This document shows, piece by piece, positions 1 to 54,524 of a DNA stretch of 64,000 nt. The position numbers and the translations under genes were made by a program. The notes under the pieces are model-generated. The model was not told the DNA's origin. It worked only from the letters and a program-made list of their open reading frames with translations, and did no database searches. The stretch comes from a virus. Its lineage: Duplodnaviria > Caudoviricetes. Within the stretch, counting starts at the first letter, position 1; each line of letters begins with the position of its first letter. Location of the stretch: the IMG/VR virus record IMGVR_UViG_3300033463_000005, positions 1 to 64,000 of that record; one strand, 5' to 3'.

Positions 1-883
1 TCATAAATGAAATGTATTGTGACGTGTCACCATTCTGTGAATCAAGCTCCTGAGCGGAACCCAAACTCTTGCATGGAGTAACAAACCTGTAGTTTGCCCA
101 AACATCATCATTGTCACTTGCTTCAGATGCTGATGGTGCGATTGCCAATAATTGATTACCAATACGAACACATGCACTCTGTAAACCAAGCATGACGACC
201 GCGGAATTGATCATCATTTTGACATTATTGATATAAGAATTCCAATCCGATTCAAATGTGTAGAATGGTTGTTGAACACTCAATGACGTCAATAATGGTG
301 CAACAAGATTCGCATTTAGATATCCACTCAGTGATTCGCTGATATAACTTGCAATTGTTGGATTGTTCAACACTTCGGTATCTTCACCAAGGTCGTCAAC
401 GCGGATACCAGCGACAGAAGATGCTTTTGCCGTTTCATATGTACCAGTATCATCAACCATTGCATTTTGATATGTCTGCATCCACGACTCTTGTTCTGCG
501 GCGGATTGTGCACTGTTTCCATTATTCAAACCACTTTCGGAATCCGCTGTTTTACCATAATCACTCAATGCCTTTTTGTATTGATAAATCATACGTAAAG
601 CATTTCCAATGGATGACATGCCACCTGTAAACATCGCGCGTCCAACAACGAAATTGACAACCTGTGCATCTCTTAAGACGTGACGTAAATAAAAATCTCC
701 AACAGGGCCCTCATTCTTTGAGCCAGGTTCTGAACTCATTAATCTCATATCATTTAGACTCGTCAATTGTGGGGGTGAACCAAACAATCTTGGAGAATAT
801 TTATTCAGTAATGGTGCTGACTGTTGTAATCCAGGTGTGTTTGTTTGCGTTGTACCACCGATACCTGGAATAATGTATGCCAT
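1..883 (-). CDS. Probable virion structural protein, truncated by the window start (MAYIIPGIGGTTQTNTPGLQQSAPLLNKYSPRLFGSPPQL...)
   Basis: Open frame from ATG 883 to the window edge, so absent from the ORF track; AAAGGAGG RBS upstream. The structural role is inferred from context. Confidence 0.6.
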   Translation of the reverse strand, partial: MAYIIPGIGGTTQTNTPGLQQSAPLLNKYSPRLFGSPPQLTSLNDMRLMSSEPGSKNEGPVGDFYLRHVLRDAQVVNFVVGRAMFTGGMSSIGNALRMIYQYKKALSDYGKTADSESGLNNGNSAQSAAEQESWMQTYQNAMVDDTGTYETAKASSVAGIRVDDLGEDTEVLNNPTIASYISESLSGYLNANLVAPLLTSLSVQQPFYTFESDWNSYINNVKMMINSAVVMLGLQSACVRIGNQLLAIAPSASEASDNDDVWANYRFVTPCKSLGSAQELDSQNGDTSQYISFM

Positions 884-18792: not shown

Positions 18793-18994
18793 GATATACT
18801 CCCCTTTCTGTCCCTATTAGGGACACTTAAAATTGGATTTCGAATCAACGACAATGATATTCGTTATGATCCACCGCTATCACCTGGGGATCAATTGAAT
18901 ACCATCATCTTGTATTCATATTAATAATATATATATGAAAATATAAAAAAATAGATATATGTGGGGGCTTAAGCCCCCACATACAATTCATACA

Positions 18995-32969: not shown

Positions 32970-33340
32970 ATGAAAATTGAAAAAACGACAACCGGTGTGA
33001 TTATCCGTGAGCCAAATGATATGGTAAAACGGAAATGTTTGGCTTATTTTTCATTAGACAAACCTCTTCGTGAATTTTTTATCTACACAGGTAATGATCC
33101 GGATAACCATGGATGGTTTGGTGGTGAACGTGATGTTATTTACATCACTTCAGGATTCTTATCGTTATCTGATCCGGACATTCATAAGTTGAAAGTGGAT
33201 TCCGTAAAACCAATTCCAACTCCAAAAAAGATCGAGTTGAAAATGAACCGAGAACCCCGTTCCGATTTACAACGTGATTGCATTCAAAAAGTAACAACAT
33301 CGAATACAAATAAAATCACAATGGAACTAAAGCCTGGTGT
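32970..33340 (+). CDS. SF2 (UvsW-like) helicase, exon 1
   Basis: PRSDLQ Q-motif; splicing restores Walker A ELKPG-V-GKT; 481-aa product. Confidence 0.88.
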
Positions 33341-33667
33341 TGAACTTTACCGGCACCCGCGTACGGTGACGTGCGTGAAAAATACACCCCATTGAATTGC
33401 TGGGACGATAACTCTAATGCTCACAATGCTACAACGTAACGATGAAATATGCGTAAGCGTGAATGCGACGAAAGTAGAAAGAAATTGTGAGATGATGCAT
33501 GGTTAAATCCTAAACATCACAAGAATGAGCAATCAGCAGCGAAGCCTTGAATAGAGGAACGTTCGTCGGTCATTCTGTGTTTAACAGATTAGGAGTTTCA
33601 TTAGCTCCGAAGCGGTGGGCATCTCATATATATGAGATGATGATATGACCAAGCGGGTTGAACGCCG
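33341..33667 (+). mobile_element. Group I intron without ORF (327 nt)
   Basis: P1 GGUGU/GCACC with the U.G pair at 33340; P10 UUUACCG/UGGUAAA; AATTGCTGGGA and AATCAGCAG core; P7 GGTCA/TGACC; terminal G 33667. Confidence 0.9.
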
Positions 33668-34742
33668 TGGTAAAACGTTCATTGCATTATATTCCGCATC
33701 AAAGTTGGGATTGAAACCATTGATTGTTGCACCAACATCATTATTGAAAAACCAATGGATTGAGAATATCGTTGAACTTGGTATTGATAAGAATGATATT
33801 GCAACAAAGATATGGGATGCACCCGATAAGAAAGTTTGTGTTGTAACAATTTCCTCATTGGAATTGGCAATCCGTGATGATTGGAATCGGTTATTGAAAA
33901 CATTGGATAATTCCGGATTTGGTATCAAAGTTATCGATGAAGCGCATCTTCATTTGAAAGGTATGCTGAAATTTGATGCTTTGTGTAATATCAAACACAA
34001 CTGGTATCTGTCCGCAACACTTGGAAGATCTGATGCAAAAGAGGATCGTATTTTAAATCGTGCTTTAAAAGATGCGGAACGATTCGTTGGAAATTCATCG
34101 TATGAAGAATATCAAAATGAATATGTCCAAGTATATTTCCAAGATATCTACTATTTCCCGTCATCCAGTTTATGTAAAAAATATTTCAAATATGGATCAA
34201 AGGGATTAATCAGAGCTTCTTATTATAAGATGCTTTTGAATTATCGCGGTGGAGATGCATTCATACGAAATCTGATTACGTTGATGAAACGCACAAAAGA
34301 ACTGTTGAATTATGATGCAAAGATTCTGTTGCTGGTTCCGTTGATTGACATTTTGAAACGGCTGTATGATGTTATGAAACGTGATCCATATTTCAGCAGA
34401 TACAAATTTGCAATCATTGAGGGTCATCTGACATTGTCGGAAAGACGTGAAGCAATGGAATCGGATTTCATTCTGTCAACATCTCTATCGATGGGAACTG
34501 GTGTCGATGTTTCAAATCTTGGTGCTGTGATCAATTTTGACCAATATGCATCACCGATTATTACGGAGCAGATCTTTGGTCGACTTAGAGATCGAGGAAA
34601 GGAAACATACTACATCGACGTTTGTGATCATGTCCGGCAAGCACGCGTGATTGCAAACTGGGGTGAACGCAGAAGAATCTTGATTCCATATTTCCCGGGT
34701 GCAAAACAAACGATCAAAAAGTTTTCACGCATTATATGCTAA
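33668..34742 (+). CDS. SF2 helicase, exon 2
   Basis: GKT, IVAPT, IDEAH, LSAT, GTGVD and EQIFGRLR. Confidence 0.9.
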
Positions 34743-34753
34743 AACATGAAAGT

Positions 34754-34966
34754 AATCCGGAATGTGTTTCGAATCGTTACACCACGTGAATCTTCTCTCG
34801 AAAGATTGGTTACCTGACCCAATCTTTGGTTCACGCAAAATGTTGAGATTCCATCATATGCGAGTCATGATGGGTGTGTTCCTCCGAACCTCCGAGCACA
34901 ATGCCATTCTCGATTAACAACATTCCGGATTTTAGGGTTGTAAGTGTGGGGCTTCGGCCCCACACT
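34754..34966 (+). ncRNA. Candidate structured small RNA A (multibranch, anti-SD loop)
   Basis: AACA-N6-TA promoter puts +1 at 34754, the first base of a 12-bp closing stem (34754-65/34920-31); several inner stems; terminator 34943-66; no credible ORF. Confidence 0.7.
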
Positions 34967-35077
34967 GTATCCTATTATTCTGACTTTTCATATATATATT
35001 ATTAATATGAAGAGAGAATAAATTACTCTCTTTACAAAATTTTTACTGGTCTCTATGAGACCGGAAAGGAGAAAACA

Positions 35078-35413
35078 ATGTTTGTAGTAATATTAAAAGT
35101 TAGGCGGATGACCACAGAAAATGATGAGGTTGTCCTTGACGAAAGATCAGAGAGAGTAATCTCTCTGAGAGCCGATTTGGCTTCCGCAATTGTGGATGCC
35201 AAAAAAGCATCCGACAGTATATGGCTGTCCACATGCCTACTTGAGTATGAAACGACCATGGAATGCGAGCTTGGTGGGCGGTTGAACAACACATGGTGTT
35301 CGCCCGGCGAAAATCCCACAGAATTCGGTGGATATATAGACGATGGCGTCAACCACTTCAATTGGACGACCATTGTTGAGGAAGGTGACTTTTGGGAAGC
35401 AGAAGAATCTTGA
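35078..35413 (+). CDS. Acidic hypothetical early protein
   Basis: GAAAGGAG RBS; early-type promoter at 34995. Confidence 0.75.
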   Translation: MFVVILKVRRMTTENDEVVLDERSERVISLRADLASAIVDAKKASDSIWLSTCLLEYETTMECELGGRLNNTWCSPGENPTEFGGYIDDGVNHFNWTTIVEEGDFWEAEES

Positions 35414-35470
35414 TTCCATTCTTCTGCTTCCCAGGAAATAACGATCAATCGGAACCGGATTGAAAGGGGT

Positions 35471-35857
35471 ATGTATATGAAACGATATATTTGCAATGTA
35501 GATATTGGGCATCACATTTATACCGAGCTCGGAGTTCTTTGGATATGTGGAGAAAATGGACTCTTCGTCACCTATGACGAAAATATTACGATATCGTGGC
35601 GGTATGATAATGGCCGTGCAACCGGTCCACGGTTGGAAACAGATGCCATTAGAAGAGCAGCCGAGAGAGTCTCGGCTGCGGCAAATGCTGGTGAGCTCAC
35701 AGAGAAGCACATTGCGGATCTCGTATCCGCAATGATCACGGGCAAATATGATATGACGGAGGATGAGAGATATATCCTCCGGGCAAAGCGCGGTTATTAC
35801 CGTGCCAGAACTGGTGAACTTGTAAAGGTTCACCAGAGGAAGAGAAGGGGCGCTTAA
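35471..35857 (+). CDS. Hypothetical early protein with basic C-terminus
   Basis: GAAAGGGG RBS; C-terminal RGYYRARTGELVKVHQ resembles short nucleic-acid-binding beta-hairpin motifs. Confidence 0.75.
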   Translation: MYMKRYICNVDIGHHIYTELGVLWICGENGLFVTYDENITISWRYDNGRATGPRLETDAIRRAAERVSAAANAGELTEKHIADLVSAMITGKYDMTEDERYILRAKRGYYRARTGELVKVHQRKRRGA

Positions 35858-35880
35858 TGCGCCCCACTCTTTTTTTTTGT

Positions 35881-38016
35881 TTAAAATGTCTGATTGACGT
35901 CATAGAAGAATGATAGATCAGATACAGAAACCTGCTGATCCAATTCTGATTTTTTTGCAATACCAGCGTATTGATTTCTTTGATATCCATATTCGTCGCG
36001 ATCATTTTGACCAATCACATGCATTGGGTCTTGAGATGTTAAATCACGCAGCATTTGATTTTCAAATGCATACGGATTTGCATATGGAATCATATTGTTG
36101 ATTTGTTCGACTTCTAATTCCCGGTCATATTCTTTGACAACTTGTTTTGCATTTTTAAATACACATAATGTTTTGTCAATGTTAAACCGTTCAATTTTGT
36201 ATCCATAATAGAAAACATATAGCACATGGTTGTATGCCATGACCATGTCATCATGGAAACCGGTTGCTGCTTCAACTTTTCCATTTTTAGCACGGACGAG
36301 ATTCGTAATATCCCGTGCAAGATATCTTGTGCACAGCAGATGCGTATAATCTTTCACATGAAGCTTCAATAAGTCGAACATATTCTTTCTGATTTGTGGT
36401 GTGACGTATGTTCCAATATATCCTTTTTCTTTTGCTTTCCGTTTCATTGTCATTTCCGGAGTTTCGTATTCTGTAACATTCTTTGCCATATCCAATTTTG
36501 GATCATGATAGAAGCGATGTTCCAGATGTGATTCCTGAATGAAATCGACAATCGCTTTACCAATGGAATTTGTTTCAACACAGAATACACCGGATGGACA
36601 TAGTTTTGCAATGTCCGTAATGATACGCATCAGATCCATCACACCGATATATGGTGAAATCAATTCACCAACGACTTCAAATGTATATGGATGCACAATG
36701 CAGATCGCGGTATTATCTCCATCACCACCAGCAGCAACGTCGATTCCGATTAGATACGGGATTGTGATATCGAAATACGGTGTATCGGAATTTAAATCGG
36801 TTACTTGTACTTGATGTTTGTATACATATAAGAAGAATTTCTTTCTTAAGAAGATTTCATAATCTGGCTGTTTTGTATTTTGTACAATGTAATCAATGTC
36901 TTTTTGTTCAAACAATACGCTGCCAGAACCACGGTATCTTTGTAACAAAACACCGCGTCGATACTCGTCTGTTTTACCAAGATTTACAACCAATTCTTGA
37001 TGTTGTTGACGTAACCATTTATCATCTTTGCGTAGTTGTTTATAATTGAATTCTATATAGAAACCTGTAATCGGTTTACGAACTTCACCATTATCCAAAA
37101 CAACTTCATCGAACAATGCTTTCAATTCGTCTTCTGTCAAATCATATAACTTTTCACTGAATGTTGGAGTTGCTTCAATCATTCGTAATGCATCACGACC
37201 TTCATCGGTTTCCAAATCTCCAGGTGTAGAATACATCATGATGCATGTTCTACCACCGACAGCACGAATGATATTACGTGCAGATGTAATAGCTGGTGCG
37301 CCGCCTTCCATAACATCTGCGAAGTGTGGAATATATTCATACTCATCGAATGCACCTGCTGCGGAAGTCGCACCACGTAATGCATCGCGAGCTTTTTCTT
37401 TGGAATCAGATTGTGCCAATACAGCAAGTTTTGTTTTATGTGCATCATATATCAATGACTTTGGTCCAGGCGGTTTTGTTTTTTCATACCATGGATTCAG
37501 ATATGAAGGTAATGCATAAACATAATCACGGAATAATGTTGCATTCTGTAAACAGCGTTCCAATTTCAAATGCATCATTGGAATTGTTGCATTCTGATAT
37601 TCGAACAGCATCATGTATTCCAGGATAATGGTACACCATGTCGTCTTGTGTGTCTGACGCGGTTGACATAGTTTGAAATCAAAACTGTGAATGAAGCACC
37701 AGCATATTGCCAATGATGCTCGTGTCAATATTGGTGGGACATTACCAGCACCGATGACGGGAACACGTGCAATCTCTCGAAAAAAGAACCATGGATTCTT
37801 TTTACATTCCACAACAATTCTTCCAATTTCTTCGGCTTTGATATCACTTTTATATGGATCGATATCCTGAACGTTTAAATTCGGATATGCGACTTCTAAC
37901 ATGAAATACCAATTCTTGATACCAAGTGTTTTTAATTCTTGAGCAGTTGTTAAGAATGATGCGTTCTTTGTTCCAAAGTCGTAAAACTTATTTCCAATCT
38001 TAACAATTTTACTCAT
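35881..38016 (-). CDS. terL: Terminase large subunit
   Basis: NPWFFFREI, QPRQTHKT Walker A, FDEYEY Walker B, STPG, IGIDVAAG and HDDMVMAY nuclease motifs. Confidence 0.92.
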   Translation of the reverse strand: MSKIVKIGNKFYDFGTKNASFLTTAQELKTLGIKNWYFMLEVAYPNLNVQDIDPYKSDIKAEEIGRIVVECKKNPWFFFREIARVPVIGAGNVPPILTRASLAICWCFIHSFDFKLCQPRQTHKTTWCTIILEYMMLFEYQNATIPMMHLKLERCLQNATLFRDYVYALPSYLNPWYEKTKPPGPKSLIYDAHKTKLAVLAQSDSKEKARDALRGATSAAGAFDEYEYIPHFADVMEGGAPAITSARNIIRAVGGRTCIMMYSTPGDLETDEGRDALRMIEATPTFSEKLYDLTEDELKALFDEVVLDNGEVRKPITGFYIEFNYKQLRKDDKWLRQQHQELVVNLGKTDEYRRGVLLQRYRGSGSVLFEQKDIDYIVQNTKQPDYEIFLRKKFFLYVYKHQVQVTDLNSDTPYFDITIPYLIGIDVAAGGDGDNTAICIVHPYTFEVVGELISPYIGVMDLMRIITDIAKLCPSGVFCVETNSIGKAIVDFIQESHLEHRFYHDPKLDMAKNVTEYETPEMTMKRKAKEKGYIGTYVTPQIRKNMFDLLKLHVKDYTHLLCTRYLARDITNLVRAKNGKVEAATGFHDDMVMAYNHVLYVFYYGYKIERFNIDKTLCVFKNAKQVVKEYDRELEVEQINNMIPYANPYAFENQMLRDLTSQDPMHVIGQNDRDEYGYQRNQYAGIAKKSELDQQVSVSDLSFFYDVNQTF

Positions 38017-38149
38017 ATCATACACCTCCTCGTGTGATGTGATTTATAATCGATGTTTGATGGCATATTGATAAACATGACGTTTTGTATAACAAAAAAA
38101 TATGCGGGTATTGTGTGTGAATACCCGCATACAAAATAGATGTCCGTGA

Positions 38150-38448: not shown

Positions 38449-40662
38449 TCAGGAGTATTGTTTTAATTGTTGCAGAATTGGTAAGAGTTGCGTGAATCGC
38501 TCATAGATGGATTCAATATAATCACGTGAGCATCCTTCAAACAGATTGGTTTCGTCGATCATTTTATAGAATTCTATCATGTCTACGAATGGATGTGATT
38601 CTTGATAATACATGAAATAGGAATGCATGATCAAGAAGAATCGAAGATCCGGAATGGATACATCGATTTTCACATTATTGATGTAAACAGGATACGTTTT
38701 ATCAACCGCGCCAATTGTTGAAAATCCAAAGATGTCTGGACGTAATTTGATACCCATAAATTTGAGCGTATTCTTCAGGTTATCCAATTGTGGGAATTGA
38801 TTGTACTTCGACAGATCAACACCCATATCATTCAGCTGCGACATCAGAATGGAATTCTCTTCATATTGTGATCCACGGAAATATGTTGTGATTTTTGAGA
38901 AATCCCGAACACCAACTCCAGCGAGGAAATTGTATGTGTCATATTCACCAAATTTCACGGGGTTATCGGAATAATGACGGAGATTCTTATTGAACTGATG
39001 TGTCTTAACAGGTTGATCATAAAGCGTTGTACGACCAGTCGAAACTGCGGCCAATGATTTAGAAGGCTCCTGCTTTAACACCCAAGTATACTGGAATCCG
39101 ACTGGATATTTATCATCCAATTTGACCCAACGTTTATGAAGCTTTGTGAATACATTATAATGCTTCATAATATCCGGGTATTTATCATATGCTTCCAGAA
39201 TTGCGTCACGAATGCAAACTTCATTAAACGGTTTGATTTGAATAATGTTTCCATTTGTCAGAATGTCATTGATGACAGCATTCGGATTCTCGGCATATAA
39301 CCGGCGAATTTCATCCGCTTGTTGTGGATTGAAGATTCCGACGAAGTCAGAAGTAATCTTCACAATGTCATCATTGGAAGCACCGTCATGATGCATTTTT
39401 GCAATATGTTGATTCATGCGATCCATCATGAACGTCATGGAACCTTCGTATGTTGCGAATGCAATGATACGGTTTGGAACCGCCAACGCATTTGCTAACA
39501 TATGAATCGGTCTACCATCATCCGTTCTCGGCATATCTTCCGTCGGAATGATTTTGGAAATAACGGATTTGTTTCCGTAACGTCCAACGACTTTCTGACC
39601 AACGGCAATCTTCATGGGTTGTAACATCGTGAATTTGATAATGGTATCCGCAATGTATTCCTTTGTAACCCATGTTGAATGATTCAAATACTTTTCTGCT
39701 TGATGGTAGATATCCAGCAGCGAAGTATCATCTTGAAATTTATCATCAAGCAATGCGGAAATATATGCATAGATGTCAGAATACCATTGACGAATTTGTG
39801 TCAGATACATGTTGAATTGCTCGTTCTCAACATCAACATTTGAAAAGATATCAATATCTACAACAGTTCCATGTGAGAAGTAATTCGTGTCATTGATATG
39901 TGGGATGGATGCTTCTGCAAATGTTGATACATATGAATTCTCACGAATGGAGCATAAGATGTTATCCTGCACCTCTTCACCAATATTCGGAAATGGTTTG
40001 TATTCTCCGTCTCTGCCATAACGGTTCAACAGGAATGATTTCTTTGACACATTTACTGTGACAATGTCAACCATATCATATTCCAATGCTTTTGCGGCAT
40101 CCGAAGAAATGATCAACGAATCTTCTGTTAATTGTGGAAGAACCGCATATGCCATTCGAAGATTCACACCAGCACAGTAATTGTCATTTACATATGAAGA
40201 TGATTGTGCAATTGCAGCGCCCTTCTTCAACACATCTCCTTCACGAATCTGTTGAATGTAATTCTTCATTCTGAATCCATATTTCTCAACAAGATTCACG
40301 GCCGGTTTATAAATCTTACAAATGTATTTTCCCGTCGCTAAATTCTGAAAGATGTATGCAATTGGAGAAAATGGTGCATTTGGGAATTTTACAAACTTTT
40401 TCATCAATTTGTAATCGTCAGTTGCACGGACATTCCATGATGAACGTTTTCCAAATTCATTTTCTGCACCGGAGAAAATCATAGGGAATTCCGGATTCCG
40501 CAGAACCAATCTCTGTGACACATGCTTCACCATCATTCCACCACGTGTTGTAGAGATCTTTTCAGGAAATCCCATTGCAGACATTCCAGTTAGTGACAAC
40601 GGATCGACATCAGCACATCTCCGATCGATATCCGATGCATTATTCATAACTTGTTTCGGCAT
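38449..40662 (-). CDS. rpoB: RNA polymerase beta subunit, C-terminal part (probably non-virion RNAP)
   Basis: EDSLIIS, GQKVVGRYGNKSVIS, MPRTDDG, NALAVPNR, VKFGEYD; the early-type promoter suggests nvRNAP. Confidence 0.9.
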   Translation of the reverse strand: MPKQVMNNASDIDRRCADVDPLSLTGMSAMGFPEKISTTRGGMMVKHVSQRLVLRNPEFPMIFSGAENEFGKRSSWNVRATDDYKLMKKFVKFPNAPFSPIAYIFQNLATGKYICKIYKPAVNLVEKYGFRMKNYIQQIREGDVLKKGAAIAQSSSYVNDNYCAGVNLRMAYAVLPQLTEDSLIISSDAAKALEYDMVDIVTVNVSKKSFLLNRYGRDGEYKPFPNIGEEVQDNILCSIRENSYVSTFAEASIPHINDTNYFSHGTVVDIDIFSNVDVENEQFNMYLTQIRQWYSDIYAYISALLDDKFQDDTSLLDIYHQAEKYLNHSTWVTKEYIADTIIKFTMLQPMKIAVGQKVVGRYGNKSVISKIIPTEDMPRTDDGRPIHMLANALAVPNRIIAFATYEGSMTFMMDRMNQHIAKMHHDGASNDDIVKITSDFVGIFNPQQADEIRRLYAENPNAVINDILTNGNIIQIKPFNEVCIRDAILEAYDKYPDIMKHYNVFTKLHKRWVKLDDKYPVGFQYTWVLKQEPSKSLAAVSTGRTTLYDQPVKTHQFNKNLRHYSDNPVKFGEYDTYNFLAGVGVRDFSKITTYFRGSQYEENSILMSQLNDMGVDLSKYNQFPQLDNLKNTLKFMGIKLRPDIFGFSTIGAVDKTYPVYINNVKIDVSIPDLRFFLIMHSYFMYYQESHPFVDMIEFYKMIDETNLFEGCSRDYIESIYERFTQLLPILQQLKQYS

Positions 40663-40811
40663 AATAGATACTCCCTTCCGTAACATAAATTGTATTTGTT
40701 AGTTACAATGCTTATGATATTAAACACAATCATTGTACATACACGGAAATCATATACATGCCAAAATAAAATTAATATATGTGGGGGCATATGCCCCCAC
40801 ATATATTACCA

Positions 40812-50919: not shown

Positions 50920-51888
50920 TTATAAATCTCTCTTAAATTTAACCTTGTACACCTGCATCAAATCATCTGTCGCAGATGAATTCTCACCATCCCGGACGAC
51001 ATCGACAATCTTTGTATCCGGTTTCGGATAATCGGGAAGTAGTTCTCCTGATGCAGAATATGTAATGAAATCATAATCAGAATCTGTATCACCAAGAAGA
51101 ACATATGTTGTTGGGTTATCTTTTTCATATTGCACAGTTGGATTAATAGACTGCGCTTCACCGATAATATCATCTAATACCACAGAAGCTTGATCTGGAT
51201 TTACCGTTGGGAAATTTGTAGATGCTGTAGCCGTGTCAACTTGTGTTTGTGATGGATTCATATCGAAGATTGTATCCATAATCGTCCTTCCCATTTCAAA
51301 TGGAGTCGAAGGTCTTCCGCCAGATACTTGATTCGGATTCGCTCCTTGTCCCGACTGTTGCTGTTGCTTAATTTTCAATTCAGCAATGTTTTTCTTAATT
51401 CCAATCTGTTCTTTATTGATTGCGGTAATTGCGGAACGAGCAGATGTCAATGCTTGCATTGCTGCAATGTCATCTTCATTCAATCCAAATTTTCCTTTGT
51501 CATTTAAGCTCTCCAGCAGTTTCCGTTCAAATACACGGATCACTTTAATTTGATCCGCAGCCAGTGTTCTCAATGCCGCAATGTCAGATGTAAATATCTT
51601 ATTTGGATCTAAACGTTCTTGTAGTGGTCCAAGTTCCAACTGGGATGATAGCTTCTGCATGATATCAGATGAAGCACCCCAGTGTCCACTTGCATATGGT
51701 GAAATATATCCATCGATATTTGGATTAAATTTCGGACGTTCGGAAAATTGTGCATATCGATCTAACCACACATGTGGATCATCTGCAGGACGATCCCATT
51801 CAGCTTGTGGTTGTGCTTGCATTGTTTCCGCCACTTGCTCGAATGATTGCATTTGATCTGCTTGACGGAATGAATCTAACATACTCAT
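50920..51888 (-). CDS. Hypothetical protein with coiled coil
   Basis: 322 aa, GAGGAG RBS. Confidence 0.75.
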   Translation of the reverse strand: MSMLDSFRQADQMQSFEQVAETMQAQPQAEWDRPADDPHVWLDRYAQFSERPKFNPNIDGYISPYASGHWGASSDIMQKLSSQLELGPLQERLDPNKIFTSDIAALRTLAADQIKVIRVFERKLLESLNDKGKFGLNEDDIAAMQALTSARSAITAINKEQIGIKKNIAELKIKQQQQSGQGANPNQVSGGRPSTPFEMGRTIMDTIFDMNPSQTQVDTATASTNFPTVNPDQASVVLDDIIGEAQSINPTVQYEKDNPTTYVLLGDTDSDYDFITYSASGELLPDYPKPDTKIVDVVRDGENSSATDDLMQVYKVKFKRDL

Positions 51889-51919: not shown

Positions 51920-51998
51920 ATGATAGAGAGGGTGGAGGATGTTAGGAGGTTGACATATCACGGGCAAATATGATATGAATGGCAGCCCTCTCTATCAT
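51920..51998 (-). ncRNA. Candidate small RNA B (or structured leader of the 51888 gene)
   Basis: AACA-AAAGGA-TA puts +1 at 51998, the first base of a 13-bp perfect stem (AUGAUAGAGAGGG/CCCUCUCUAUCAU) followed by UUU; inner 7-bp hairpin; two CCUCC motifs. Confidence 0.7.
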
Positions 51999-52065
51999 AT
52001 CCTTTTGTTCAGATAAATTCAAATATCAAAAAAAAATATGGAGGGACATTGTCCCTCCATATCGT

Positions 52066-53571
52066 TCATTCCATTTTGGTTAAACCATACAAACCATTCA
52101 ATGCTTCTTTCTCTATCGGGAAAGCTGCACTCAAATCAGGACGAATATTATATGCTTTTGATACCATCAATTTTTCTGCTTGTTCATTTGCTTCATCCGA
52201 CCATATTCCAGTACTCTTAACCGTATCACCATCGTAGTCGCCATTCAAATTAATCAGTCTTGCATTTGACATCTGCAACACATCAATGAACGATGTTGAA
52301 GCAACAGCATGGGATGCTTGTGGATCTACTATTGGATATGTCTGATACGTTTCACCCATGAACTGAACTGGGATTGTATTATTCGTTGACAACACATGGA
52401 TCTTTGTAAAGAATGCACCAAGATAATCACCGATTGGATATCGAACGGTGTAAACATGCTTGTTTCCTTTGACACAAGCGTTGTAGCAACATAGATAAAT
52501 AACGTCAGTTAATGTCAATTCTCTTGTGATCGGTTCTTTCGTTTTCAAGTTCATGGCAGAGAAAGTGATGGGTCTCTTATTCTCTGGATCCGCATAAAGG
52601 ATTCTAAATCTACTACCAGGGTTTTGCATAAAGATTCGCATCAATTCTTCCATCGCTCTATCATCATAGATATTATCAATGTCCGAACGTTTGATATCAT
52701 CCGGACTTGGATCAAATGAAACGATATTATCATATGACAAAAATTGTTTCATTTGGAATTTTACAAATGGATGGAACATGGACACGAGTGACATCATTGG
52801 ATAACCCGTTCGATAGATACCGATCACTGGATTATTGGATCGATAGGATGGTGCAGAAATGACATTACGAACAGTTCCAACTGTATTCTTTGCCAATAGA
52901 TTCTTTTGTAAGAATCCATTCTTTGTGCCACAATATTTATGGACATACGAGTATACTTCGATTACAGCATTTTGAATCTGGTTGTATACCTTATATACAT
53001 TTGCCGTTGTATGTGCTGTGACACTCTGATATCCAAGTAGCTTAATATAAATAGAATTCAATTCGGATTTAACGGGTCTACCATTTCGCATACCAGTTGG
53101 ACGCATTGCGGGTGGAAGTACCAAAAGCTTATCAATGAATAATAAACGTTTTGGAGTCTTGATTAAAATCTCAATATTTTCTTCTCGACGAGATTTCATT
53201 GTTTTCGCAATATCAATCTGATCCCAGATCTCATATAGATCTTTTAAACCACAATACTTACCATTTTCATTTTCGTGTAAGACACCGTCTACAAGATCAC
53301 ATTTAATTTCTGCAAATGCCAACTTTCGAATGATTCCACCAGATCGACCGATGATAGTTTTTGCAATATGTGGATTAAATACGTGGATTGGTAATTTCAG
53401 ATATCCACATTTGTATTTTCTTTCATCTTCCGTTTGTCCGAATATTTCCTCTGAAAATAATCCGGTTGGATTCCATTGGTTTGTTGATCGATATATTGCT
53501 GCGGATGTGACTTCTTGTAAATTATTAACTTTGATATCTTGGTCGATATCATACAATCCCTGAATCTTCAC
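52066..53571 (-). CDS. rpoC: RNA polymerase beta-prime subunit, N-terminal/catalytic part (probably virion RNAP)
   Basis: GLFSEEIFG, GYLKL, LVLPPAMRP, RNVISAP, VRYP and the catalytic NGDYDGD; GTG start with AAGGAGG; late-type promoter. Confidence 0.9.
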   Translation of the reverse strand: MKIQGLYDIDQDIKVNNLQEVTSAAIYRSTNQWNPTGLFSEEIFGQTEDERKYKCGYLKLPIHVFNPHIAKTIIGRSGGIIRKLAFAEIKCDLVDGVLHENENGKYCGLKDLYEIWDQIDIAKTMKSRREENIEILIKTPKRLLFIDKLLVLPPAMRPTGMRNGRPVKSELNSIYIKLLGYQSVTAHTTANVYKVYNQIQNAVIEVYSYVHKYCGTKNGFLQKNLLAKNTVGTVRNVISAPSYRSNNPVIGIYRTGYPMMSLVSMFHPFVKFQMKQFLSYDNIVSFDPSPDDIKRSDIDNIYDDRAMEELMRIFMQNPGSRFRILYADPENKRPITFSAMNLKTKEPITRELTLTDVIYLCCYNACVKGNKHVYTVRYPIGDYLGAFFTKIHVLSTNNTIPVQFMGETYQTYPIVDPQASHAVASTSFIDVLQMSNARLINLNGDYDGDTVKSTGIWSDEANEQAEKLMVSKAYNIRPDLSAAFPIEKEALNGLYGLTKME

Positions 53572-54163: not shown

Positions 54164-54257
54164 TTTGATCTCCTTTCTGTGACATGAGTTGAAATTTATT
54201 TGTTTAAAATATCTCATGTCAATATAATAATATATATATATGTAATATGAAAAAAGA

Positions 54258-54404
54258 AGAATGTGGGGCAAAAGCCCCACATTCAAATCAGGGTGATTCT
54301 TACCCGATGAGTTAAGGTAAGAATCGGCTAGGAGGCAAGCAATGGCCCAATGAGTTCGGAAAATCTTCAACGGCAAGTGAAGATTGGGTTCATCAGATGA
54401 ACTT
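54258..54404 (-). ncRNA. Candidate small RNA C
   Basis: GACA-AAATTG-TA puts +1 at 54404; stems 54362-69/54378-85 and 54295-304/54316-25; GCCAUUGCUUGCCUCCUA between them; ends at terminator 54258-83 with a U tract. Confidence 0.6.
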
Positions 54405-54524
54405 ACAATTTTGTCGGTTGAATATGTATATTATTAAAATGATTTCGGAGAGATTTAACATAATAAATAGAATCCGAAAACAAACAATTATACCGTTTAT
54501 CAATCATAAGGAGGATACAGACAC

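Follow-up and report, generated by a model that had tools for sequence, protein, structure and literature searches.

Why should a virus genome carry the same 22 nucleotides (nt) twice, once in a gap between genes and once, some 16 kilobases (kb) away, inside a gene? The question is raised by positions 51920-51998 of the virus record IMGVR_UViG_3300033463_000005 (258,509 bases; CheckV completeness 96%, GC content 38.8%), the first 64 kb of which are referred to here as the window. The element at these positions, which we call RNA B, carries the 22-mer ATCACGGGCAAATATGATATGA at 51957-51978, and an exact second copy, on the plus strand as is the first, lies at 35735-35756 within gene 35471-35857 (+). 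An earlier note on this DNA had proposed that RNA B is a discrete small RNA (sRNA) made from the minus strand, acting as a specific antisense regulator of an early mRNA. Our analysis indicates that RNA B is very probably something else, namely the 5'-terminal stem-loop of the leader of a late mRNA, with a loop that would have been expanded in the common ancestor of two sister species. As to the match, we lean slightly, and tentatively, towards a functional pairing of this leader with the early mRNA that has a regulatory consequence, because the match fits exactly into an accessible linker of the target and because additional seeds complementary to the leader loop are present beside it.

The identity was exact on re-examination at both positions, and these are the only copies in the 258,509-base genome, even with three mismatches allowed; scans of IMG/VR contigs and of GTDB genome contigs did not find the 22-mer pattern either. 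Of 100 dinucleotide shuffles of the window, none contained two matches, whereas one of 40 genomes simulated with a third-order Markov model held some exact 22-mer repeat, direct or inverted, so that an origin by chance is unlikely, at a few percent per genome, without being astronomically small. A larger diverged duplication around the 22-mer was considered and ruled out: the flanks show no residual similarity, their local alignments scoring no better than shuffles.

Gene content places the source, an uncultured jumbo phage, within the phiKZ-related group on its AR9 side: the window encodes split RNA polymerase (RNAP) beta-like subunits on the minus strand (38449-40686 and 52066-53571), and among the named relatives of its terminase the best, 26% identical, are AR9/PBS1-like Bacillus phages and S6-like Staphylococcus phages. 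The comparison set comprises a strain nearly identical at the leader (L009), a strain 98.7% identical at the target (L004), three more distant relatives (L003, L006 and L013), and a sister species (loci L005/L017), of which about 35 kb covering the syntenic region were examined through L010, L016 and L017. The sister species is 86%, 68% and 65% identical to the window in three neighbouring proteins and 91% identical in the terminase; in the databases, the clade consists of these two species only.

The probable late leader and its stem-loop

Read along the minus strand, the locus presents in order the intrinsic terminator of the upstream RNAP beta-like gene 52066-53571 (52063-52035, a 13-base-pair (bp) stem and then a U run), the motif AACAAAAGGATA, the 79-nt hairpin of RNA B (51998-51920), 31 nt, and the ATG of the late gene that this leader serves (50920-51888, -; 322 amino acids (aa)). 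Four neighbouring genes all lie on the minus strand. The motif follows the late promoter consensus of the Bacillus jumbo phage AR9, AACA-(6N)-TA/G, in which the last base is the start site (PMC5312081). Here it occupies 51998-52009 (-), with AACA at 52009-52006, the T at 51999 and a predicted +1 at the A 51998, which is also the first base of the outer stem. In the predicted fold the outer stem has 13 bp and closes a loop of 53 nt. A 22-nt block over the late-promoter region, AACAAAAG[G/A]ATATGATAGAGAG, is nearly identical in the sister species, where AACA-N6-TA is kept with the predicted +1 at the stem foot, and AAC-N7-TATG with a short hairpin occupies the position of the leader in the more distant relatives. 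No other copy of the leader start motif was found in IMG/VR or elsewhere in the phage genome. A host-type sigma-70 promoter on the plus strand was also considered and rejected: TTGACA-N18-TATGAA can be seen by eye and was not listed by the promoter scanner, whose listed sites are weak (9/12) and fall on both strands, and the phage has polymerases of its own.

The sister species has the same leader architecture in the same place, with an outer stem of 17 bp that includes a U.G pair, and its conserved fold is found on the gene-sense strand only (-33.2 vs -28.0 kcal/mol). Within the loop of the outer stem lies an inner hairpin (51954-51977, -) of 8 bp with the loop AUUUGCCC at 51962-51969. This hairpin carries the complement of the 22-mer, the minus-strand RNA reading UCAUAUCAUAUUUGCCCGUGAU at 51957-51978, so that the match covers its 5' arm, its loop and 5 nt of its 3' arm. 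The 10-nt loop that had been described for it is obtained with 7 bp, when the closing U.G pair is left out; otherwise the hairpin has 8 bp and a loop of 8 nt. Between the window and L005 the inner hairpin shows two double compensatory changes (A-U to C-G and A-U to G-C), one change of A-U to G.U and no disruptive change, and the core of its loop, UUUG[C/U]CC, is kept. In the 3' internal loop the stretch CCUCCUAA (51942-51949, -) is single-stranded and resembles an anti-Shine-Dalgarno sequence; it is the same in the window, L009 and L005, although the rest of the hairpin interior has diverged.

Because the neighbouring genes are on the minus strand, the late motif is conserved and the sister species has a fold with G.U pairs on that strand only, the transcript of the intergenic element most likely comes from the minus strand, and to this extent the earlier proposal of an RNA antisense to the early mRNA is supported. 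Its description as a discrete sRNA fares less well. No terminator-like site was detected 3' of the hairpin (past 51920 on the minus strand), the outer stem being followed in this phage by UUUUAUAAU and in the sister species by no U run, and the start codon of gene 50920-51888 is so close by that RNA B reads as a 5' leader. It has a predicted start at its first base, a conserved gene in the same sense behind it, and a structure that has been kept by compensatory change. The 322-aa late protein itself has 52-68% identical relatives in related jumbo phages, where each is encoded immediately after an RNAP beta-like gene; it has no sequence match in Pfam, PHROG or PDB, and its AlphaFold2 (AF2) model is poor (mean predicted local distance difference test score, pLDDT, 52). 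At genome position 138656 (-), a further AACA-N6-TA is followed directly by CCUCCUAAAC, the anti-Shine-Dalgarno-like word of leader B.

A close reference for this arrangement is AR9, which has an early promoter AAATATATATTAT-N6-G, the late promoter given above, and long 5' untranslated regions (UTRs) that contain unexplained motifs (PMC5312081). The present phage resembles it in having 19 intergenic early motifs with a G start and a leader that begins at the A of AACA-N6-TA; it differs in that its terminase is 26% identical, its GC content is 39%, its late motif is weakly enriched and its start sites are predicted from motifs. Stem-loops at the 5' terminus are known to stabilise bacterial and phage mRNAs, examples being the ompA leader and the Bacillus 5' stabilisers that act against 5'-end-dependent decay. 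Leader B is like these in placing a hairpin at the predicted +1, as do nearly all predicted early transcripts of the phage, and a small hairpin is found at this position in L003, L006 and L013. It is unlike them in that its loop has expanded to 53 nt and contains both a conserved inner hairpin and the CCUCCUAA stretch; these features suggest a function of leader B beyond end protection.

The early cassette and gene 35471-35857

The second copy of the 22-mer belongs to a short cassette (approximately 34967-35880) with an AR9-type early promoter, TATATTAT-N6-G (34995-35009, +), with a predicted +1 at the G 35009. The promoter precedes a first open reading frame (ORF) of 111 aa without relatives found (35078-35413, +) and then gene 35471-35857 (+), and the unit extends to a bidirectional terminator at 35847-35865 that is common to the cassette and the convergent terminase gene. 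With this promoter upstream and this terminator downstream, the gene has the layout of an AR9-type early transcription unit, its timing being predicted. The 19 intergenic copies of the early motif are distributed genome-wide and have G at every predicted start; window examples are at 18931 (-), 34995 (+), 38377 (-), 54234 (-) and 54427 (+). In nearly all predicted early transcripts a hairpin begins at +1 or +2, its arms often being AGAGAG/CTCTCT.

Gene 35471-35857 encodes 128 aa (126 aa from the start at 35477) in an open frame with coding-like codon usage in both halves, and is an ORFan: searches of IMG/VR, of 5.8e9 clusters and of 1.84e9 representatives returned only the gene itself. Its N-terminal half (35471-35640) has weak, multi-stretch matches (E about 3e-4) to long repeat-rich proteins of 1988 aa and 830 aa, and weakly resembles YD/RHS-like repeats in motifs such as WRYDNGR. 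In translation the protein reads as charged, helical and hydrophilic, with no family match. An AF2 model of the 126-aa form (pLDDT 54), used for secondary structure only, gives a helical C-terminal half at low confidence and, with the same low confidence, places the codons of the match at the end of helix 2 and in the loop before helix 3. The suggestion that RNA B might act like an antitoxin on a toxic early gene is therefore not borne out, because a 128-aa hydrophilic ORFan is no type I toxin and the two loci lie 16.2 kb apart.

As RNA, the two halves of the gene are very different. The 3' half (35645-35842, +) has a minimum free energy (MFE) of -90.7 kcal/mol with z = -8.56, vs z = -1.0 for the 5' half; it ranks second in structure among 1722 windows of the genome, at a GC content of 52% vs 39% genome-wide. 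Five stem-loops make up this region (35657-35679, 35710-35734, 35757-35781, 35788-35805 and 35811-35836), and the 22-mer at 35735-35756 (+) is exactly the linker between the second and third of them. That the match fills the gap between two perfect hairpins had been noticed before, and both stems proved real: the first has the 10 bp ascribed to it, and the second is perfect over the 8 bp ascribed to it and has 9 bp in the MFE structure. Positions 35736-35744, a part of the 22-mer, are weakly paired in the MFE structure, with an opening cost of 5.6 kcal/mol, and by this model the target site is accessible without being fully free. Three GGCAAA motifs, at 35680, 35741 and 35782 (together spanning 35680-35787, +), lie along the same region.

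The cassette appears to be young. It was not found in the sister species or in the relative with a 75% terminase, and gene 35471-35857 is lacking in more distant relatives too; in the sister species the terminase is directly followed by a terminator and a homologue of the window region 34743-34940. The spot is a variable one, with an HNH-like gene in one sister strain and a helicase with a LAGLIDADG insertion in another. In the window, the helicase that adjoins the terminase (32970-34742) has largest frames of 141 aa and 365 aa; the sister loci at this spot are L016 12371-14893 and L010 2820-4019, and the helicase of one strain is 840 aa long with a LAGLIDADG hit. The helicase locus is a mobile-element hot spot, and a split or truncated helicase may be what the window carries. 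The helicase 3' end has a diverged duplication (34663-34725 vs 35393-35455, with an exact core 21-mer), whose second copy lies between the two cassette ORFs and there belongs to a perfect 16-bp hairpin (35393-35433); the duplication has the look of a scar left by the insertion event. Paralogy of the cassette genes with other phage genes was also considered and none was found, the promoter and 5' UTR (171.5 kb) and the terminator (149.97 kb) alone belonging to element families.

Pairing, patch copying and other explanations

The two predicted transcripts, one from the early +1 at 35009 on the plus strand and one from the late +1 at 51998 on the minus strand, are antisense to each other over the match. 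All 22 positions are complementary, giving a duplex of -35 kcal/mol, and the opening costs are 5.6 kcal/mol for the target and 7.6 kcal/mol for the leader, 13.2 kcal/mol together. On the target side, the 22 nt occupy precisely what separates hairpins 2 and 3, and this region is among the two most structured windows in the genome. The three GGCAAA motifs each stand 0 to 6 nt 3' of a perfect hairpin stem and are complementary to the leader loop UUUGCC, and nowhere else in the genome, which has 57 plus-strand sites, do three of them fall within 120 nt. A second antisense complementarity, of 15 nt, involves the neighbouring part of the leader: the 15-mer GAATGGCAGCCCTCT at 51977-51991 (+) is common to 145393-145407, in the 5' hairpin of another early transcript.

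A sequence of events that would join these observations can be proposed. Most economically, the structured late leader would have existed first; the young early cassette would then have received a 21-nt in-frame copy of its inner hairpin, and a later conversion in this strain would have added one further matching base. After the onset of late transcription, the leader loop UUUGCCC would nucleate on GGGCAAA in the target linker, and a 22-bp intermolecular duplex could form between the leader and the early cassette mRNA. Such a duplex might silence the early cassette mRNA, remodel or trim the late leader, or do both, and the most plausible route would be a double-strand-specific nuclease such as RNase III. 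Cleavage by RNase III of sense/antisense duplexes of about this length is described for bacteria (PMC3531473, PMC7373196). On this proposal the match would be a by-product of patch copying that now couples early and late transcripts.

The strain differences bear on the origin of the match. Leader L009 differs from that of the window almost only in an 8-nt patch by the inner hairpin (CTGCCATT vs TGGTCATC) and in a CC indel. Since the L009 state resembles that of the sister species it looks ancestral, and the derived patch of the window is identical to the loop of the 145.4-kb hairpin, which makes it the source both of the 15-nt match and of the 22nd matching base. This suggests that short-patch conversion has been recent in this leader. 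In L009 the base at 51978 is C in the RNA instead of U, opposite target position 35756, which leaves a match of 21 nt to the target as read in the window. This 21-nt core, ATC ACG GGC AAA TAT GAT ATG in the target (35735-35755), consists of seven in-frame codons (ITGKYDM), and the two facts together suggest that copying of a short DNA patch from the leader gave rise to the 22-nt match. L004, the sole other strain seen at the target, keeps the 22-mer and adds little information.

The strongest rival to functional pairing follows from this origin. The match could well be a scar of neutral recombination, in which template switching or short-patch repair placed 21 nt of the leader in the young early gene, where they were tolerated and their complementarity went unused. 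The core begins on a codon boundary, and its length of exactly seven codons is that expected of a neutral insertion that was tolerated; the secondary structure from AF2 puts the patch at a helix end and loop, where the edges of the identity are sharp and the flanks unrelated. The setting fits as well: the cassette is a recent, species-specific insertion in a spot that holds an HNH gene or an intein-bearing helicase in sister strains, and the diverged helicase-end duplication lies right beside it. With a second recent short-patch conversion in the same leader, of several bases and identical to another locus, DNA-level copying seems to be active there and needs no RNA function.

These last points weigh against a function of the pairing, and so do several others. 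The one-base-shorter match in L009 is among them, as is the weak genome-wide enrichment of the late motif. The inner hairpin is present in the sister species without the cassette, and is therefore older than the target, while no second copy (of at least 11 nt) of the sister leader interior was found in the approximately 35 kb of sister DNA; because of this, the primary role of the inner hairpin would seem to be something other than the pairing described here, and the earlier idea of a specific regulator-target pair is not supported. Two other structured RNAs of the phage, A and C, have only chance-level matches of 13-16 nt to other loci. Finally, the target is an ORFan and the clade comprises two species, which leaves no co-variation to set beside the match. 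What speaks against a scar is that the junctions show no visible microhomology, that exact placement between perfect hairpins, together with two extra GGCAAA seeds, is not expected of a random patch, and that the net gain of about -22 kcal/mol would cause the RNAs to pair anyway if both were present. It is on the fit to the linker and on the extra seeds that we tentatively keep to a functional pairing of late leader and early mRNA.

The version of the earlier note, in which a discrete RNA of about 80 nt is freed by termination or processing and serves as a dedicated trans antisense regulator of gene 35471, is quite improbable. A promoter-like motif with its +1 at the stem foot and the UUUUAUAAU stretch directly after the outer stem would suit it, and RNAs A (34754, +) and C (54404, -) have terminators of their own, so that small late RNAs probably exist in this phage. 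However, the own 3' end that would give a short RNA, as in canonical trans-acting sRNAs, was not found for RNA B, either as an intrinsic terminator in the window or as a U run in the sister species. The element precedes the start codon of a conserved gene by 31 nt in every relative, its hairpin is older than the target, and the target protein was not toxin-like in any search.

A site shared at the level of double-stranded DNA is very improbable. Here the dyad ATCA-N10-TGAT would be bound at both loci by the same protein, be it a regulator, a nuclease or a recombinase; the partial dyad is present in both copies, with arms that reach 7 bp in the intergenic one, the copies have the same orientation on the DNA, and the intergenic copy covers +21 to +42 relative to the predicted late +1. 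Yet the asymmetric 10-bp spacer is identical too, which an operator does not require, the genome holds two copies only, the pattern is absent from the scanned IMG/VR and GTDB genome contigs, and the sister hairpin evolves by compensatory changes, which fits an RNA structure rather than a conserved DNA site. Pure coincidence of 21-22 nt in an AT-rich 258-kb genome, for which one can cite the single Markov genome with a repeat and the scan of very many windows from which the finding came, is likewise very improbable for a sequence that is not of low complexity, had no second copy in the shuffles, and coincides at one locus with a conserved hairpin and at the other with exactly the linker between two hairpins.

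If the pairing of leader B with the early mRNA is real, it can be set beside known phage antisense controls. In lambda OOP acts on cII, in P22 sar on ant, and in P1 and P7 the c4 RNA on the ant operon, with nucleation at a hairpin loop; c4 RNA pairs through short complementary segments and not through an overlapping gene. The likeness would be that RNA-RNA pairing between phage transcripts sets the timing or level of another phage gene. The difference is that OOP, sar and P1 c4 are dedicated small transcripts encoded at or beside their targets, whereas the partner proposed here is an mRNA leader 16 kb from its target, with a perfect match of 21-22 nt and a putative function. Type I toxin-antitoxin systems, of which tisB/IstR-1 is one, offer a second comparison. 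RNase III-dependent silencing is described for another of them, the prophage-borne txpA/RatA of B. subtilis (PMC3531473). The perfect RNA duplex of about 20 nt or longer, a length suited to RNase III, is common to these and to the present case. These systems combine a small hydrophobic toxin with an adjacent or overlapping antisense RNA, whereas the target here encodes a hydrophilic protein of 128 aa that weakly resembles YD repeats and is no small membrane peptide, and the two loci are neither adjacent nor overlapping.

A wider reading is that structured RNAs with late promoters (leader B and perhaps RNAs A and C) act in this clade as antisense silencers of early transcripts, forming an RNA-RNA layer in the early-to-late switch. 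We consider this unlikely. It would have leader B pair with two early transcripts through adjacent modules, 22 nt with the cassette mRNA and 15 nt with the 145.4-kb RNA, and it would gain new targets simply when short pieces of the leader were copied into early genes that the phage had recently taken up.

Should the narrower pairing be used, an mRNA leader and not a dedicated sRNA would act in trans on another phage mRNA, and the early and late gene classes would be linked in a jumbo phage with host-independent transcription. It would also offer a simple evolutionary route, in which pasting about 20 nt of a structured RNA in frame brings a new gene under RNA control. Should it be unused, perfect matches of about 21 nt would be seen to arise in phages by short-patch copying, and such a match alone would be no evidence of regulation. 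Either way, AR9-type early and late promoter motifs and universal 5'-terminal hairpins are located in an uncultured phage clade.

Other structured RNAs and repeats

The transcript at 145.4 kb has its early promoter at 145369, which is followed by approximately 600 nt without an ORF of more than 60 aa (genome 145386-146000; L019 487-1100) and a terminator near 145970-145995; the region has no Rfam family match. The transcript may be a long non-coding RNA of the early class. Its 5' hairpin has a loop complementary to CUGCCAUU in leader B.

RNAs A and C are both ORF-free and structured, both preceded by NACA-N6-TA and both followed by terminators. For RNA A (window 34743-34966, +), AACATGAAAGTA predicts a +1 at 34754, the base with which a closing stem of about 12 bp also starts (34754-34766 with 34924-34936). 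The stem encloses about 160 nt, CCUCC stretches among them, and a terminator lies behind it at 34943-34966. The MFE of RNA A has z = -5.85, and the region is about 76% conserved in the sister species, where it comes directly after the terminase. For RNA C (window 54250-54415, -), GACA-N6-TA gives a predicted +1 near 54404, and hairpins and GCCAUUGCUUGCCUCCUAG are followed by a strong terminator (54284-54259) and a U run. No Rfam family reached its gathering score anywhere in the 64-kb window.

The other genes recognised in the window include the large terminase (35881-38025, -), the helicase and a gyrase B-like protein. Most other long repeats of the genome are accounted for by terminators, an AT-rich promoter family, tRNAs, tandem repeats and an assembly overlap. 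The last of these is an exact repeat of 110 nt with which the record both starts and ends (window 1-110 and genome 258381-258490), and probably reflects the assembly of a genome that is circularly permuted or terminally redundant. Exact repeats of 44, 23 and 20 nt are dispersed elsewhere, at 151359-151402 and 152448-152491, at 158375 and 159491, and, in inverted orientation, at 155943 and 243170, respectively.

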